From the NCBI GenBank assembly GCA_963663035.1, contig OY760074.1, positions 2,272,001-2,336,000 of the forward strand: a stretch of 64,000 nucleotides of DNA, given 5' to 3'. The notes below the pieces were generated by a model, which had not been told where the DNA came from, did not search any database, and saw only the letters and a program-made list of their open reading frames with translations. The position numbers and the translations under genes were made by a program. This DNA is from Acidobacteriota bacterium. GTDB lineage: Bacteria; Acidobacteriota; UBA6911; RPQK01; JADFOI01. The stretch's first letter is position 1. Each line of letters starts with the position of its first letter. Positions 46,252 to 52,549 of the stretch are shown here, piece by piece.

Positions 46252-47712
46252 TTAGTGCCTCCGCTGCCTCTCTTCCGTCACCCCTTCGCTCACTCTCTCA
46301 GCGTGACGAATACAATCAGAGATGCCCACTCCATCCAGGAAGTTGCCTACCAAGTATAATCCAGGCACCTCATTCAAGTCCTGGCTCAGACGTTCTGTCC
46401 TCTCGTGATGACCCACTTGATACTGAGGTAGAGCGTTCTGCCACCGGTAGACCTTCTGGGAAACAGGTTCCTTCTGAATTCCCATGATCTCCACCAATTC
46501 ATCCTTTATCCTACACACCAGCTCCTCAGTATCTGAAGTCATCCACTTCCTGGCTTGATTCCCTCCCACAAAAGAGCGCAAGAGGGCATGCCCCTTGCGA
46601 CAACGGCCGGGGAATTTGTTGCTCATCCAGGTACAGGCCGCCATGGTCTTCTTTTCACCTTGGGTGACCAGAAAACCGGATCCAGTTCGACCAGCGAGGA
46701 TATCTTCATCGTACGCTAAACTCACGATGATCGCCGAAGCATAGGGGATTTTCTCCAGCAGCTGGGCCATTGGAGGAAAGGCTTTCGAGAGAATCTGGGC
46801 TGAGACATCAGCGGGGGTAGCCAGAATCAGAACGTCAAAATCCTCCCAAACTTCCCTTCTGATCCGCACCTGAAATCCGTGGCTCAGCGCCAGCGCATCA
46901 GACACCTTGGCCTCCAGACGCAGATCGACCCGCTTATTGAGCTCTTTCAGCAAAGCCTCGACCAGCTCAGCTGTTCCTCCCTTGAGCGAAAGGAGGGGGC
47001 TTCCCTCTGCTTTCCGGCCTGCCGCCCCTTTTCTGGGAGCGATTCTTTTCAACAGGCTCTTGGTCAGTTGAAATGGGCTCTTCGTCAATCTGCCGTAGGT
47101 GCGCTCAGCCTCATAGAGATGGGGCAAGGTACTGCGGATGCTGAGAGCAGAGGCATCACCTCCGTAAATGCCAACCACCAAGGGTTCCAAGATCTTTTCT
47201 GCGACCTCTCGACCCAATCTGCGGGAGATGAAGTTTGTCACGGATTCATCTTCGATATTGGCAGAGGAAATCAGGGGCTCCAGAGCTGCTCGAAGGCGAC
47301 CCCGGCAGGAAAGGAGAGGCGTTCTCACCAAGCCAAGCTGATCCAGAGGAGGTTTCGCAAACAGACCCGGCGGTAGAGTATGGAGCTTCCCCTGTGAGAG
47401 GAGATAGGATTTCCGATGGTGGGGCTCTGACCCAACCAATCGCCCTTCCAGGCCCAGCTTGCGGCACAACTCAAGAGCCTGCGGTTTGTGTGCAACGAAA
47501 GAATCGGGTCCCCCTTCCAAAACGAACTCCCCGATCCGTTCTGAGAGAATGGTGCCACCCCAGCGGCTGGACGATTCCAAAAGAACGATTTCGGCTTGAG
47601 ACTGACTCAGACGCTGGCTCAAGAAGTAAGCAGTGGAGAGACCAGAGATGCCTCCTCCAACGATGGCAATCCTGGTGGGTGGGGAATGTCCTTTATCTTT
47701 TGCTCTTGGCAT
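46252..47712 (-). CDS. hemY: Protoporphyrinogen/coproporphyrinogen oxidase (HemY/HemG type)
   Basis: GGGISG, 'EGGPDSF', 'GIYGGD', 'LPQYQVGH', 'GVGISDCI'; start ATG 47712. Confidence 0.93.
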   Translation of the reverse strand: MPRAKDKGHSPPTRIAIVGGGISGLSTAYFLSQRLSQSQAEIVLLESSSRWGGTILSERIGEFVLEGGPDSFVAHKPQALELCRKLGLEGRLVGSEPHHRKSYLLSQGKLHTLPPGLFAKPPLDQLGLVRTPLLSCRGRLRAALEPLISSANIEDESVTNFISRRLGREVAEKILEPLVVGIYGGDASALSIRSTLPHLYEAERTYGRLTKSPFQLTKSLLKRIAPRKGAAGRKAEGSPLLSLKGGTAELVEALLKELNKRVDLRLEAKVSDALALSHGFQVRIRREVWEDFDVLILATPADVSAQILSKAFPPMAQLLEKIPYASAIIVSLAYDEDILAGRTGSGFLVTQGEKKTMAACTWMSNKFPGRCRKGHALLRSFVGGNQARKWMTSDTEELVCRIKDELVEIMGIQKEPVSQKVYRWQNALPQYQVGHHERTERLSQDLNEVPGLYLVGNFLDGVGISDCIRHAERVSEGVTEERQRRH

Positions 47713-48730
47713 GTACCCACTGGACCACAGCCTCAACATTTTCCAGCGGGGTTTGAGGCAGGATTCCGTGTCCCAGGTTAAAGATGTGACCAGAACGACC
47801 GCCGGCCTGTTCCAGGACCTGGTCAACTTTTTCTTCCAAATAATCCCGGGGTGCGAGCAAGGCCACTGGATCCAGGTTTCCCTGAAGCGGGGTGTCGCTC
47901 CCCAAGCGGCGCCAGGTCTCCTTCAGACTGATCCGCCAATCCACCCCCATCACAGTACCCCCCGCCTCCTTCATCAACTCCAGAAGGGTCGCTGTTCCAG
48001 TACCGAAATGAATCAAGGGAACGGAGAACGGTTTCAAGCGCGCGAAGATTTTCTGAGAATAGGGCAGAACATAACGCCGATAATCTTCCGGTTCCAGACA
48101 TCCTACCCAAGTGTCAAAGAGCTGTATGGCTTGAGCTCCAGCCTCGATCTGAGCGGTGAGGTACTGCGCCATGACTTCCGAGGCCGTCTCCATAAGTCGT
48201 TTCCAGGCCTCGGGGTGGTGATACATGAGCCGTTTCGTATGAAGGAAATTCCTGGAGACTCCTCCTTCAATCATGTAGCTCGCCACGGTAAAAGGTGCTC
48301 CAGCGAATCCGATCAAAGCTGTTTTTGGATCCAACTCGCTGCGCACAAGTCCAAGGGTCTCCATCACACACCGAAGATCTTCTTCTGGATCTCCGACATG
48401 AAGCCTTTTCACATCTTCAGGACTTCTGATGGGCTGGTGGATCACCGGTCCTTCACCTTTGGAAAACTCGAAGTCTACGCCCATGCTCTTGAGGGGCAGC
48501 AGAATATCGGCAAAGATAATTGCTGCGTCCACCTCAAAGCGGCGGATCGGCTGGAGAGTGACCTCCTTGGCCACTTCCGGTCTCGCGCAGATCTCCAAAA
48601 GAGTGTATTTCTCGCGCAGTTTTCGATACTCCTTCATATAACGACCCGCCTGGCGCATGAACCAGACCGGAGTGCAGTCCACTTCCTCGCCCCGGCAGGC
48701 TTTCAAAAACCGCGAATCTTTCTCTGTCAT
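47693..48730 (-). CDS. hemE: Uroporphyrinogen decarboxylase
   Basis: 'PVWFMRQAGRY', 'FADIL', 'GFAGAPFTVASY', 'QGNLDP', 'FNLGHGI'. Confidence 0.98.
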   Translation of the reverse strand: MTEKDSRFLKACRGEEVDCTPVWFMRQAGRYMKEYRKLREKYTLLEICARPEVAKEVTLQPIRRFEVDAAIIFADILLPLKSMGVDFEFSKGEGPVIHQPIRSPEDVKRLHVGDPEEDLRCVMETLGLVRSELDPKTALIGFAGAPFTVASYMIEGGVSRNFLHTKRLMYHHPEAWKRLMETASEVMAQYLTAQIEAGAQAIQLFDTWVGCLEPEDYRRYVLPYSQKIFARLKPFSVPLIHFGTGTATLLELMKEAGGTVMGVDWRISLKETWRRLGSDTPLQGNLDPVALLAPRDYLEEKVDQVLEQAGGRSGHIFNLGHGILPQTPLENVEAVVQWVHAKSKR

Positions 48731-48773
48731 GCCGCTTTCATCCTATCCCATTTGGATCTCCCACGCAGGTCGT

Positions 48774-48803
48774 TTGACACTGCCTTGGGCTTTCCTCTAA
48801 ACT
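48774..48803 (+). promoter_or_regulatory. sigma70-like promoter; predicted +1 at or next to the GTG of the Cys-rich uORF
   Basis: TTGACA (48774-48779), 18-nt spacer, TAAACT (48798-48803), 7 nt, then GTG 48811. Confidence 0.7.
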
Positions 48804-48810
48804 ACGGGCC

Positions 48811-48999
48811 GTGGATAAAAGCTTGGATTTGAACGACATCGCTCGGTGGGCATGCGGAGATTCCCCTCTGGAGGGGGCCAATTCCTTCTGCACCCCACTG
48901 GACCGTCAGGCCGTGTGTGTCTGCTGCTGTTGTTGTTGTTGTACAAAACTTGTGTCAAGGGAGCAATGCCTGCTGCCGGCTCTTCATCGTAGGGAATAA
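48811..48999 (+). CDS. Polycysteine leader peptide (putative attenuator uORF)
   Basis: 62 codons with 11 Cys, including 7 consecutive (TGC TGC TGT x5 at 48922-48942); directly upstream of a terminator and cysM. Confidence 0.8.
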   Translation: MDKSLDLNDIARWACGDSPLEGANSFCTPLDRQAVCVCCCCCCCTKLVSREQCLLPALHRRE

Positions 49000-49023
49000 T
49001 TCCGAAGCGATATTTGAGACCCG

Positions 49024-49061
49024 AAAGGCCCGCAGGATTGCTCCCGCGGGCCTTTTTTTTT
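49024..49061 (+). terminator. Intrinsic terminator (attenuator) in the cysM leader
   Basis: AAAGGCCCGC-A-GGA-TTGC-TCC-C-GCGGGCCTTT with a T9 tract; its 5' arm and loop are alternatively complementary to 48959-48973. Confidence 0.85.
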
Positions 49062-49100
49062 ACTCTGACGCGAATATGCCATCTTTTTTGGAGATCTCTT

Positions 49101-50057
49101 ATGTCATTACTAGTTCTGTCATCGGACCGTGAGCCGCTCATGGAAGAAGAACGTTCACAGGACGGGGGACTCCTTGCACGAATTGGCAACACTCCTCTCG
49201 TAGAACTTCAAAGGATCTTTCACTCCCCAAGGATCCGCATCTTCGCCAAGCTGGAATGGTTTAACCCGGGGGGCTCGGTGAAGGATCGTGCCGCTTACTC
49301 CATGATCCGAAAAGGAGAGAAAACAGGAGAACTTGGCCCGGGCAAAGTGATTATCGATTCCACCAGCGGCAATACCGGCATTGCCTATGCTTTGATCGCT
49401 GCAACAAAGGGATATAAGCTCTTGCTGGCCCTTCCCTCCAATGCCAGCCTGGAGAGAAAAAAGACCCTGGAAGCTTACGGGGTCGAACTCTTGTTAACGG
49501 ACCCCCTGGAAGGATCCGATGGCTCCATACGGGCCATTCAGGAACTGTACCAGAAATCTCCCGAAAAATATTTCTATCCCGACCAGTACAGCAATGATGC
49601 CAACTGGGAAGCACATTACGATACGACAGCCCCGGAAATCTATGAGGGAACGCACCAGGAGATCACACACTTTGTGGCCGGCCTGGGAACTGGCGGCACT
49701 TTTATGGGCACAACCAGAGGACTGCGGAAAATGAGTCCTGAAATCCAGGCCATTTCCTTTATGCCCAACTCCCCGCTTCACGGGCTGGAAGGGCTCAAAC
49801 ACATGCCCACATCCATAGTTCCAAGTATCTATGATCCCAGTCTGGCCGATGAAAATCTCGAGATTTCCACAGAAGAGTCACAGGAAATGCTCATCCGGTT
49901 GGCTCGGGAAGAGGGCCTTTTCGCCGGCCTGTCCTCCGGTGCAGCCATGGTCGCGGCACTGAAGGTGGCCAAGAACATTGATCGCGGGACCATCGTCACC
50001 GTTTTCCCAGACGGTGGAGACAAGTATCTCTCCGAGGAGTTTTGGAACAGACAGTGA
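49101..50057 (+). CDS. cysM: PLP-dependent cysteine synthase (CysM type)
   Basis: 'IGNTPLV', 'NPGGSVKDR', 'STSGNTG', GLGTGGT, 'GLSSGA'; GGAG SD before ATG 49101. Confidence 0.93.
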   Translation: MSLLVLSSDREPLMEEERSQDGGLLARIGNTPLVELQRIFHSPRIRIFAKLEWFNPGGSVKDRAAYSMIRKGEKTGELGPGKVIIDSTSGNTGIAYALIAATKGYKLLLALPSNASLERKKTLEAYGVELLLTDPLEGSDGSIRAIQELYQKSPEKYFYPDQYSNDANWEAHYDTTAPEIYEGTHQEITHFVAGLGTGGTFMGTTRGLRKMSPEIQAISFMPNSPLHGLEGLKHMPTSIVPSIYDPSLADENLEISTEESQEMLIRLAREEGLFAGLSSGAAMVAALKVAKNIDRGTIVTVFPDGGDKYLSEEFWNRQ

Positions 50058-50473
50058 TCCGACTGAAGTCCAAGGATATCGAGGAAATCAAACGGATTTC
50101 CCAGGAAACCTATCCTCACGAATGTTGCGGCCTGATGGTGGGATCAGTGGAAAATGGCGTGAAAACTGTCACCGAGTGCATTCCCGCAGAGAATCAGCGC
50201 AGCGACAGTCCGGCCAATCGGTATCTCATTTCTTCAGAGTTACTCAATGAGGTAGAGGAGAAGCTGAAAGACACTGGTTTTGCCATCCTGGGGTTTTTCC
50301 ACAGCCATCCGGATGTCCCGGCTCAACCCTCAGCCTACGATCAGGAACATGCCTGGCCCTGGTATTCCTATCTGATCGTTTCCGTACTCAAAGGCAGAGC
50401 CGAGGAATTCCATAACTGGAGACTGAGAGATGATCGCTCTGCTTTTGATCCAGAGAAGGTGGAACTCTTATAA
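50042..50473 (+). CDS. mec: JAMM/Mov34 metalloprotease (Mec, CysO-cysteine peptidase-like)
   Basis: 'YPHECCG' and FHSHPD..PSAYD JAMM motif. Confidence 0.85.
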   Translation: MEQTVIRLKSKDIEEIKRISQETYPHECCGLMVGSVENGVKTVTECIPAENQRSDSPANRYLISSELLNEVEEKLKDTGFAILGFFHSHPDVPAQPSAYDQEHAWPWYSYLIVSVLKGRAEEFHNWRLRDDRSAFDPEKVELL

Positions 50474-50513
50474 ACTAACTTGAGAATCAGCAGAAGATAA
50501 CCAGGAGGCCACA

Positions 50514-50798
50514 ATGGCAGCAACTATTTATATTCCAACCCCATTGAGATCCTACACCGGTAATCAAGAGTCTTTGGAACTGGAAGGAAACACGGTTGGG
50601 GAAGTCTTAAAGAATCTGGCCCAGCAGTATGGAGATCTGAAGAAACACCTGTTCGATGAAGAGGGGAAACTCAGGAATTTCGTCAACATCTATGTCAACG
50701 ACGAAGACATCCGTTACCTCAAGCATGAAGATACGCCCATCAAGGACAAGGACACCATCAGCATCGTCCCCTCCATCGCAGGCGGATTGATATCCTAA
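50514..50798 (+). CDS. cysO: Ubiquitin-like sulfur carrier protein (CysO/MoaD/ThiS family)
   Basis: 'IPTPLRSYT', 'FVNIYVNDEDIRYL', 'IVPSIAGG' followed by a 3-residue extension (LIS). Confidence 0.85.
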   Translation: MAATIYIPTPLRSYTGNQESLELEGNTVGEVLKNLAQQYGDLKKHLFDEEGKLRNFVNIYVNDEDIRYLKHEDTPIKDKDTISIVPSIAGGLIS

Positions 50799-50995
50799 CC
50801 GAAAGCTCCTAGCCCGCCTGGCGAATCCACCGACCTTCTCTTGAGCCGCTTTCCAGGAGACTGTCTCCTGAGAGCGGCCGCTACCACTCCGGCATCCGTC
50901 CTTTCCCAAGGTCCCGCACTCCTAGAATCACATTTCCCTTCGCAGTTCTTGCTGACTGGATCGTTATAGAGGACAAGAGGAATGGGGAGAAGACC

Positions 50996-52549
50996 ATGCT
51001 GTTAAAAGTTCAGAGTGCTTCGGTCTTGGGAGTTGAAGCACAGATTATCGACATTGAGGTGGATCTTTCACTTCGTCGGGGACGCAAGTATCACGTTGTA
51101 GGGCTTCCCGACACGGCGGTCAAAGAGAGTGGAGAGCGGGTACGGGCGGCCATCCAAAACTGTGGCTACGAGTATCCCCATCTGGGCTGTATTACCGTCA
51201 ACCTGGCACCGGCCGACTTCAAAAAGGAGGGCAGTTGCTATGATCTCCCCATTGCCCTGGCCGTACTGGGACTCGGTGGAGCCCTGGAACCCGAACACGT
51301 TCGAGATTGGCTGATCCTGGGAGAGCTCTCTTTGGACGGGCGAGTTCGACCCATCCGCGGGGCACTGCCGGTGGCTTTACACGCCAGTCGGAAAAAATTC
51401 AGCAAACTTCTGCTACCGGTAGACAATACCCGGGAGGCTGCGGTCGTGGGCGGGGTGGACATTTACCCCGCCTTTACCCTTCCACAAGTCATACAGTTGC
51501 TCAATGGAGGATCTGCCAAGTACCCACCTATCAAAGTGAAGCACTGCGACTTGTTCAAGGAGCAGACCACGGGGCGGCTGGATTTTATCGATGTGAAGGG
51601 ACAGGAAGCCGCCAAGCGTGCCCTGGAGATGGCTTGTGCCGGAGGTCACAACCTGTTGATGATCGGCCCTCCCGGCGCTGGCAAAACCATGCTGGCCAAA
51701 TGCATTCCATCCATACTGCCGGAAATGAGTTTTGAGGAGGCCCTGGAAACTACGGCTATTCACAGTGTGTGTGGGCTCCTCAAAGGGAAGCAACCGTTCT
51801 TGACCCACCGCCCTTTCCGTGCACCCCATCACACCATCAGCAGCGCCGGGTTGGTGGGAGGTAGTTCCATTCCTCGTCCCGGTGAAGTTTCTCTGGCCCA
51901 CAATGGCGTGCTCTTCTTAGACGAGCTTCCGGAATTTCATCGCCATGTGCTGGAGGTGCTGCGCCAGCCGCTGGAAGAGAGTGAAATCACCATTAGCCGG
52001 GCATTACGCACTCTGACTTTCCCAGCCCGATTTATGCTGGCTGCGGCCATGAACCCTTGCCCCTGCGGATATTGGAACTCGGTCCTGAAGGAATGTGTGT
52101 GCACGCCTCCCCAGATTCAGCACTACCTATCCAAGATTTCAGGTCCTCTCCTGGACCGGATCGATCTCCATATCGACGTCCCGGAAGTCCACTACAAGGA
52201 ACTCATCAAGGATCCCGCTGGAGAATCATCCAAGGTCATTGCACAACGCGTGAGCAAGGCATGTCAGGTTCAGCTGCGGCGCTTTCGCTCCAGCAAGCCC
52301 TCGATCTTCTGCAATGCTCAGATGGGACCGGCCCAGATCCGCAAGTACTGTGCCTTGGAAGACCACATCAAGAAACTCCTGGAAAGCGCTATTCAAAAGC
52401 TCGGCTTTTCGGCCCGTGCCTACCACCGGATTCTCAAGATGGCCCGCACCATCGCTGACCTGGGAGACTCAAAGGAGATCTCCTCTGAGCACGTCTCCGA
52501 GGCCATCCAGTACCGATCCCTGGATCGCAACTTCTGGAAAGATTTCTAG
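50996..52549 (+). CDS. comM: YifB/ComM Mg-chelatase-like AAA+ ATPase
   Basis: 'VGLPDTAVKES', 'NLAPAD', GPPGAGKT, 'PGEVSLAHNGVLFLDE', 'MNPCPCG', 'SARAYHRILK'. Confidence 0.96.
   Translation: MLLKVQSASVLGVEAQIIDIEVDLSLRRGRKYHVVGLPDTAVKESGERVRAAIQNCGYEYPHLGCITVNLAPADFKKEGSCYDLPIALAVLGLGGALEPEHVRDWLILGELSLDGRVRPIRGALPVALHASRKKFSKLLLPVDNTREAAVVGGVDIYPAFTLPQVIQLLNGGSAKYPPIKVKHCDLFKEQTTGRLDFIDVKGQEAAKRALEMACAGGHNLLMIGPPGAGKTMLAKCIPSILPEMSFEEALETTAIHSVCGLLKGKQPFLTHRPFRAPHHTISSAGLVGGSSIPRPGEVSLAHNGVLFLDELPEFHRHVLEVLRQPLEESEITISRALRTLTFPARFMLAAAMNPCPCGYWNSVLKECVCTPPQIQHYLSKISGPLLDRIDLHIDVPEVHYKELIKDPAGESSKVIAQRVSKACQVQLRRFRSSKPSIFCNAQMGPAQIRKYCALEDHIKKLLESAIQKLGFSARAYHRILKMARTIADLGDSKEISSEHVSEAIQYRSLDRNFWKDF

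Follow-up and report, generated by a model that had tools for sequence, protein, structure and literature searches.

The trp, his, leu, thr, ilv and pheA operons of enterobacteria are the classical leader-peptide transcription attenuators. They are built from a short open reading frame (ORF) rich in codons for the end product, a terminator before the first structural gene, and an antiterminator that shares a strand with that terminator, and the position of the ribosome decides between the two structures. Here we describe an element with the same components in a stretch of 64,000 nucleotides from the genome of an Acidobacteriota bacterium (GenBank assembly GCA_963663035.1, contig OY760074.1, positions 2,272,001 to 2,336,000 of the forward strand; this whole stretch is the window, and positions below are numbered within it), where a short polycysteine ORF and an intrinsic terminator lie upstream of the genes cysM, mec and cysO. 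The source genome, referred to as G000, is a single contig of 3,594,683 bases with a completeness of 96.6%. The element differs from the classical attenuators in that the amino acid concerned is cysteine, the ORF is probably leaderless where the classical ones have a Shine-Dalgarno sequence, no 1:2 pause/anti-antiterminator hairpin is conserved, and the stop codon lies 24 nt past the antiterminator arm, not just before it. It also has no sequence relation to them: between 48500 and 49400 no Rfam 15 family reached its gathering threshold (Trp_leader scored 18.1 bits against a cut-off of 41, His_leader 16.1 against 49), the sub-threshold matches being driven by the terminator, and in 13 leader loci searched in the same way only neighbouring tRNA genes reached threshold.

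Leaders that carry cysteine codons have been described in other bacteria. In mycobacteria, leaderless polycysteine short ORFs (the 'Cys ribulon') respond to cysteine, and in the studied case, which the accessible text of the report sets against terminator-based attenuation, a Shine-Dalgarno sequence is hidden (Canestrari et al. 2020, 10.1101/834739). As far as that text describes them, these ORFs have in common with the present leader consecutive Cys codons, a leaderless start (here probable), cysteine-related operons downstream, several leaders per genome (here in relatives) and a regulon-like coordination through the ribosome; the mycobacterial criterion, two or more Cys codons in a row ahead of cysteine-related genes, describes the present locus as well. 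The mycobacterial case, according to the same text, is translational, with an RNA duplex over the Shine-Dalgarno sequence and no intrinsic terminator, whereas here a terminator/antiterminator pair is conserved, in another phylum, with cysM-mec-cysO as the target, and the two covariance models described below found nothing outside the class. A predicted attenuator of Rhodobacterales, uORFC-8-2 of the cysS gene, combines tandem Cys codons in an upstream ORF (uORF) with a terminator that ends in a U tract (Brewer et al. 2021, PMC8632094), and shares with the G000 leader predicted ribosome-mediated attenuation, tandem Cys codons and the type of terminator. That element is alphaproteobacterial, controls a tRNA synthetase gene, has its two Cys codons inside the first stem, and begins with an AUG uORF that the part of the article dealing with it does not describe as leaderless; the present leaders, in contrast, precede cysM, cysH or sulfite reductase genes, and the G000 leader carries its Cys run upstream of the pairing arms and matches no Rfam family. 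In Actinobacteria, comparative genomics yielded candidate Cys leader peptides with Cys-codon runs upstream of cys operons, which the available portion of that study presents as lacking obvious terminators, with Rho-dependent termination suggested (Seliverstov et al. 2005, PMC1262725); where those leaders have no conserved terminator hairpin, terminator and antiterminator are the best-conserved parts here. Regulatory cysteine codons are also mentioned for leaders of M. tuberculosis in an excerpt of a further article (PMC13236596).

A search of the full-text literature, which leaves subscription journals largely uncovered, returned no description of a cysteine leader-peptide attenuator in Acidobacteria. 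An earlier note on this DNA knew of no Cys attenuator with an intrinsic terminator in an Acidobacteriota-like lineage or in control of a CysO-type operon; in the literature searched this holds, but a combination of Cys codons and an intrinsic terminator is already in print for cysS of Rhodobacterales (PMC8632094). The principle is textbook, and an attenuator of such form seems undescribed for the phylum. The element is a new sequence family and has a new operon target (cysM-mec-cysO) within a known regulatory kind; traits of its own are a start that is probably leaderless and the absence of a 1:2 element.

We propose, with a probability of about 85%, that the leader is a ribosome-mediated transcription attenuator that would sense charged tRNA-Cys and control cysM-mec-cysO. 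All of its described parts lie in the intergenic gap that separates cysM from hemE (minus strand, 47693-48730; Pfam URO-D) (Table 1). The promoter-like TTGACA-18-TAAACT matches 10 of 12 consensus positions and is the sole good sigma-70-like match on the plus strand in 48000-51500, and between its -10 box and GTG 48811 there is no GGAGG-like or other Shine-Dalgarno-like stretch. This promoter 7 nt before the GTG, the 62-codon ORF with 11 Cys (seven of them consecutive and in mixed TGC/TGT codons) and a 14-bp pairing that overlaps the terminator had all been pointed out in the earlier note, and each is present as it described them. The terminator hairpin was likewise recovered in every fold run, and its distance from cysM, given there as about 40 nt, is refined to 39 nt between the end of the U tract and the cysM ATG (49101-49103). 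A simple consensus terminator scan did not list the 49024-49061 terminator, because of its internal mismatch and the loop rule.

The alternative to this terminator is a helix in which GGGAGCAAT(G)CCTGC at 48959-48973 pairs over 9+5 bp with GCAGGATTGCTCCC at 49032-49045, G48968 being bulged. Three further pairs are possible (48975-48977 with 49027-49029), and the helix encloses a stretch of 58 nt. The two folds share a segment and are mutually exclusive. When the nascent RNA 48956-49045 was folded with the Cys run masked and the terminator 3' arm absent, it formed the antiterminator domain at -39.8 kcal/mol; with the 3' arm included, the terminator state lay at -45.0 kcal/mol compared with -41.0 kcal/mol for the forced antiterminator. 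With a gap of 4 kcal/mol, the two states are close in energy, implying that the order of folding should decide the outcome. The Cys run itself is far from what base composition would lead one to expect. Counted over the whole genome on both strands, with the expectation taken from base composition, TGY-codon runs of at least 3 number 308 against ~214 expected, among them 15 four-codon runs, a single five-codon run and a single seven-codon run. The 7-codon run, of which ~0.0002 would be expected by chance, is unique in the genome. The five-codon run and 14 of the four-codon runs were checked and sit within open frames of at least 185 amino acids in another frame, and the fifteenth four-codon run is 15 nt from a checked one. 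This leaves 48922-48942 as the sole intergenic polycysteine run of the genome.

Homologous leaders were sought among relatives. A CysM protein query led to 30 fetched loci from 41 related genomes, six of which have a short ORF with a Cys run, followed by a terminator, upstream of the cysM orthologue. From these six leaders we built a covariance model (R1) in which the terminator was the only structure supplied and gene context had no part; a second model (R2) was built from all 38 leaders. R1 found one copy in the G000 genome, 37 homologous leaders as full-length matches at E <= 1e-6 in 25 of the 76 genomes of the same order (after the removal described below), and one further leader, L082, among 61 more genomes of the class, in another order. 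With R2, no match came from the 139 genomes searched in other classes of the phylum. Genome G017 is counted solely among the genomes without a match. The search of relatives for conserved Cys runs and covarying helices, which the earlier note had suggested as a check, was thus positive in 25 of 76 genomes of the order.

The genes that follow the leaders, assigned by Pfam, belong almost entirely to cysteine synthesis and sulfur assimilation, with 35 of the 37 leaders preceding cysM-mec, cysH-cbiX or sulfite-reductase genes. A cysteine synthase (PALP) follows six leaders, with a JAB gene next in five of the six; a 3'-phosphoadenosine 5'-phosphosulfate (PAPS)/adenosine 5'-phosphosulfate (APS) reductase (cysH) and then CbiX follow 16; a sulfite reductase of ~775 amino acids follows 12; and DUF4202 and then sulfite reductase follow one. 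The other two precede genes without a Pfam family. L082, the leader in the second order, precedes a PAPS reductase gene (cysH). Several relatives have two leaders per genome. In three genomes of the same genus (G001, G003 and G004) the leader precedes cysH-cbiX, ~2.3-2.4 kb upstream of cysM, which in these genomes comes after the two genes.

The antiterminator pairing beats 95% of a leader's own dinucleotide shuffles in 32 of 37 leaders (mean -22.8 vs -14.9 kcal/mol), the duplex of the G000 leader reaching -28.3 kcal/mol against -15.4 kcal/mol for its shuffles. In an alignment fitted to the terminator only, 74.8% of antiterminator cells are paired in the register of G000, compared with 43-58% for slid partners. 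An alignment fitted to the helix, and biased towards it for that reason, has 79.6% of cells paired and 20 double-sided changes in 7 of 14 pairs, with a covariation score that was reached by none of 500 shuffles. Joint changes of arm and loop can also be followed by eye, as GGGAGCAAU/AUUGCUCCC in G000, GGAGCGAUC/GAUCGCUCC in L045, GUGUUCCUG/CGGGAAUAU in L052, GGAGGC/GCCUCC in L060 and GAAGC/GCUUC in L061. The terminator is paired in 96.6% of cells over the 38 leader rows, with compensatory changes, and a strong stem with a U7-U9 tract is kept in 38/38 leaders.

The spacing of these parts is conserved as well. The arm begins 15-21 nt past the last Cys codon of the cluster in 31/38 leaders, and in 34/38 the stop codon lies between -7 and +21 nt from the 3' end of the arm; in 34/38 it also lies 24-64 nt ahead of the terminator stem. 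In the g17 cysH leaders the stop codon falls within the arm itself, which is the simpler textbook case. The Cys clusters of relatives read CICCC, CCCC, HCCC, CGC or CMC, with synonymous interchange of TGC and TGT. Outside the cluster the peptide is not conserved, its length ranges from 29 to 63 codons, and the frame that runs through the conserved nucleotides in L041 and L049 is not the one used in L045. The variable peptide and the differences of frame indicate a leader rather than a functional peptide. A script matched a promoter of the form TTGnnn, 16-19 nt, (T/G)AnnnT in 33/38 leaders and found the next in-frame GTG, ATG or TTG 6-11 nt past the -10 box in 24/38, though it picked the wrong frame for a few rows; examples with differing flanks are TTGACA-18-TAGAGT-7-GTG, TTGCAC-18-GATAAT-10-ATG and TTGACA-18-TAGATT-8-ATG.

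The anatomy suggests the following course of events. Transcription would start at GTG 48811 or 1 nt before it, and the leader ORF would probably be translated without a 5' untranslated region. If Cys-tRNA were scarce, the ribosome would stall on 48922-48942 with its leading edge short of 48959, and the arm 48959-48977 would be left free to pair with 49027-49045 once that segment is transcribed, sequestering the 5' strand of the terminator and allowing read-through into cysM. With any one of the Cys codons in its A site, a stalled ribosome should shield about a dozen bases beyond it; with this footprint, and with the arm 16 nt past the run, the arm would be just free during a stall, and the conserved spacing fits. 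If Cys-tRNA were plentiful, the ribosome would instead cross the arm to TAA 48997 and sit within the stretch that the antiterminator must enclose, the local terminator hairpin would form, and transcription would end at the U9 tract.

Several observations weigh against this proposal or some part of it. The stop codon of the G000 leader lies 24 nt beyond the main arm (48959-48973), and a terminating ribosome would leave that arm uncovered: with TAA 48997 in the A site, its rear edge would come no further back than ~48982. In the earlier note the ribosome at TAA 48997-48999 was to disrupt the pairing; blocking is likelier during the crossing of the arm, when the arm would be inside the ribosome, and then by the terminating ribosome, which would melt the central hairpin and fill the 58-nt stretch, and we infer that termination is also favoured because the local terminator hairpin would fold faster. 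The trp-like 1:2 hairpin is not conserved, beating shuffles in 4/38 leaders (p = 0.32 in G000), so an untranslated leader is predicted to read through, unlike trp; of the trp/his attenuator geometry that the note had recognised, the overlap of antiterminator and terminator stands and a conserved 1:2 anti-antiterminator does not. The central hairpin is unsupported family-wide (57.6% paired, no excess covariation). MAFFT and RNAalifold, applied to 37 leaders cut before the terminator 3' arm, gave no consensus structure, because the alignment across subfamilies is too poor, and the minimum free energy (MFE) of the whole 265-nt leader is ordinary (z = -1.62; 8/200 shuffles fold equally well), so that the case is independent of overall stability.

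Further points of this kind concern expression and distribution. It is the geometry of the promoter that makes the transcription start and leaderless translation probable, and 5/38 leaders show no promoter-like match while 9 more fall outside the 6-11 nt distance. The contigs of three RNA-type runs, which take small shares, are short, come from relatives 90-95% alike, and none runs across the leader; such contigs cannot show transcript starts or ends, and we draw no conclusion from the RNA runs. Within the order, R1 gave no full-length match at E <= 1e-6 for 51/76 genomes; among these, G025 shows a weaker match to R2 (37.8 bits) ahead of its PAPS-reductase gene. Kin are not independent, moreover, and the leader counts overstate the support. 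In order members without the leader (L016, L006, L009), the gene that directly precedes the cysM orthologue resembles, by eye from its translation (MKITARADYAILAIFELALHP...), an Rrf2-type regulator, and a protein regulator may stand in place of the attenuator in these genomes.

The same Cys-codon attenuator could operate with a leader that is not leaderless, transcribed from a start farther upstream or translated from within the frame, for instance at GTG 48913, which precedes the run by three codons. Alternative in-frame starts do exist (TTG at codons 5 and 7, besides GTG 48913), the script found the 6-11 nt geometry absent in 14/38 leaders, and L050, L054 and L060 have at least 10 nt, or no clear promoter, before the start. 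We nevertheless consider this variant unlikely, given that, in subfamilies with otherwise different flanks, a constant short gap separates TTGACA-18-TAnnnT from an in-frame GTG or ATG, that no Shine-Dalgarno-like sequence lies ahead of any candidate start in the G000 leader, and that the mycobacterial polycysteine short ORFs are leaderless in the accessible account of them (10.1101/834739). The same account, as far as it is available, describes the sole experimentally studied polycysteine short ORF as acting translationally (10.1101/834739), which would favour a mechanism in which stalling frees a hidden cysM ribosome-binding site and the hairpin with its U tract merely ends a separate short transcript. 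The cysM GGAG, however, lies beyond the end of all folds (the leader fold ends at 49075), the conserved alternative pairing engages the 5' strand of the terminator and not a Shine-Dalgarno sequence, and the strong stem with its U tract is universal among the 38 leaders, which makes translational control of the mycobacterial type very improbable.

Slightly less credible again is that the ORF encodes a cysteine-rich micropeptide with a function of its own, such as metal or redox activity, followed by an ordinary terminator, and that cysM is transcribed from a separate promoter. In favour of this, the open frame persists in the same-genus relative G002 (13 of 62 residues changed), and 11 Cys in 62 residues resemble small metal-binding peptides. 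The free variation in length and sequence outside the Cys cluster and the change of reading frame between L041/L049 and L045 argue against such a function, as do the lack of any Pfam family for the peptide, the position of the element directly ahead of cysteine or sulfur-assimilation genes on the same strand, and the promoter scan, which found no promoter-like site between 49062 and 49101. Conservation of sequence in the terminator loop and arm would also be expected of an RNA switch controlled by a ligand or protein (a riboswitch or a binding-protein antiterminator), in which the Cys codons would be incidental. Loop conservation, however, is explained by pairing with the arm, with which the loop covaries; Cys clusters recur in unrelated leaders of the phylum at the same +16 to +18 spacing; and the leader reaches no Rfam threshold and has no T-box or riboswitch-like multi-stem core, so that we regard a switch of this kind as the most improbable of the alternatives. 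A T-box, a riboswitch, a functional micropeptide and chance were all considered and rejected, chance by the expectation of ~0.0002 given above.

Among matches to the models, a full-length R1 match of 28.7 bits (L078, genome G074) turned out to be a 5S rRNA gene and its terminator and was dropped; with this false positive, R1 matches below ~30 bits are unreliable. L080 and L081 (R1, ~20 bits) were dropped as non-members. The 20-bit L081 match (genome G045, ~401-527) is driven by a terminator upstream of a fused chorismate mutase/prephenate dehydratase/DAHP synthase gene, and the short frames ahead of that terminator, ending ...SCFFS... or ...IFLFF and a stop, may belong to a Phe leader attenuator within this order. 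A scan of contigs for the terminator core, a pattern too generic to serve as a census, gave 2 family members in 80 fetched loci, among the matches listed.

Table 1. Parts of the candidate cysteine attenuator and the genes it precedes, in window positions
Feature	Positions	Strand	Basis and remarks
-35 box TTGACA	48774-48779	+	Promoter scan; same box 18 nt 5' of a TAnnnT box in most relatives
-10 box TAAACT	48798-48803	+	18-nt spacer from -35 box; ends 7 nt (ACGGGCC) before GTG 48811
Leader ORF	48811-48999	+	GTG start, TAA stop 48997-48999, 62 codons, 11 Cys; probably leaderless
Predicted stable hairpin in 5' half of leader ORF	48843-48901	+	MFE fold; only in G000 and G002
Cys run, proposed sensing site	48922-48942	+	Codons 38-44: TGC TGC TGT TGT TGT TGT TGT
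Antiterminator 5' arm	48959-48977	+	Starts 16 nt past last Cys codon; duplex energy, spacing, pair counts
Central hairpin inside antiterminator	48978-49021	+	TAA 48997-48999 in apical loop; fold, by-eye conservation in close subfamily
Intrinsic terminator	49024-49061	+	Stem GGCCCGC 49027-49033 / GCGGGCC 49046-49052, inner GGA/UCC 3-bp helix, U9 tract 49053-49061
Antiterminator 3' arm = terminator 5' arm and loop (shared segment)	49027-49045	+	Folds, shuffles, covariation
GGAG Shine-Dalgarno of cysM	49090-49093	+	Sequence; 29 nt past U tract
cysM, first regulated gene (proposed)	49101-50057	+	Pyridoxal phosphate-dependent cysteine synthase, CysK/CysM family; Pfam PALP
mec-like JAB/MPN metalloprotease gene	50042-50473	+	Pfam Prok-JAB; overlaps cysM end
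cysO-like ThiS/MoaD-family sulfur-carrier gene	50514-50798	+	Pfam ThiS; NCBIfam SAMP1/MoaD; C-terminus ...AGGLIS

The hairpin in the 5' half of the leader ORF belongs to a longer region ahead of the Cys cluster than is found in other leaders (37 codons here compared with 10-16), and is perhaps a pause site or an insertion. An antisense frame of 131 amino acids at 48797-49192, which overlaps the cysM start, was taken as spurious. The CysM protein scored 344.9 bits against the NCBIfam cysKM subfamily (cut-off 344.15) and matched cysteine synthase B in the PDB (E = 6e-70). The CysO-like protein has three residues beyond the Gly-Gly of its ...AGGLIS end, so the adjoining JAB protease may need to trim it before use, for which QbsD/QbsE may provide an analogy. 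Neither PAPS/APS reductase (PF01507) nor sulfite reductase (PF01077) was found in the G000 genome, a single contig of the completeness given above, and the same-genus relative G002 bears a second Cys leader before cysH-cbiX-cobA-sir. Assimilatory sulfate reduction seems to be lost from the G000 organism, with the CysM-Mec-CysO route alone retained.

Polycysteine leaders also occur elsewhere in the phylum. A PAPS-reductase-domain gene was present at E <= 1e-25 in 46 of 151 genomes sampled across the phylum, and 30 fetched loci were examined. Runs of at least 3 consecutive TGY codons lay within 900 nt upstream in 7/30 loci, where ~0.9 chance runs would be expected. Six of the seven are short ORFs 250-330 nt upstream (e.g. 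...ATCCCCCCCRPTRP... in L217), and the seventh, in a long frame, is probably due to chance. The six (L216, L217, L219, L220, L224 and L226) encode up to 7 consecutive Cys and stand before cysH or cysD-like genes. In L216 and L217 an arm at +18 after the Cys run pairs with the 5' arm of a terminator. No U-tract terminator was seen in L219, L220 and L226, which may have another mode of action; in two of them, L219 and L226, the leader is immediately preceded by a tRNA gene. None of the six was detected by R2, and the design therefore seems to recur in unrelated sequence families.

To our knowledge, gene regulation in Acidobacteriota is almost unstudied. A tentative extension of these results, to which we would give somewhat less than even odds, is that a ribosome-read 'Cys ribulon' governs most sulfur assimilation and cysteine synthesis in Acidobacteriota, composed of several unrelated and repeatedly arisen families of polycysteine leaders (probably leaderless), each combining a Cys cluster, an arm ~16-18 nt downstream that acts as a ribosome-sized ruler, and an intrinsic terminator, in place of CysB/CymR-type regulators; the G000 family would represent a form with three elements, whose leader, if untranslated, would read through rather than super-attenuate. 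The leader family described here gives the phylum a regulatory element with a clear predicted signal and a defined regulon (cysM-mec-cysO, cysH-cbiX and sulfite reductase), and it lends independent support to the view that the CysM-JAB-ThiS cluster makes cysteine. It also flags unannotated small ORFs that gene callers miss, and the 15-21 nt spacing between Cys cluster and arm is a usable rule in the search for more leaders. Leaderless initiation appears here to be coupled to a classical terminator switch; the mycobacterial 'ribulon', so far translational, would then reach a second phylum and include control of transcription.

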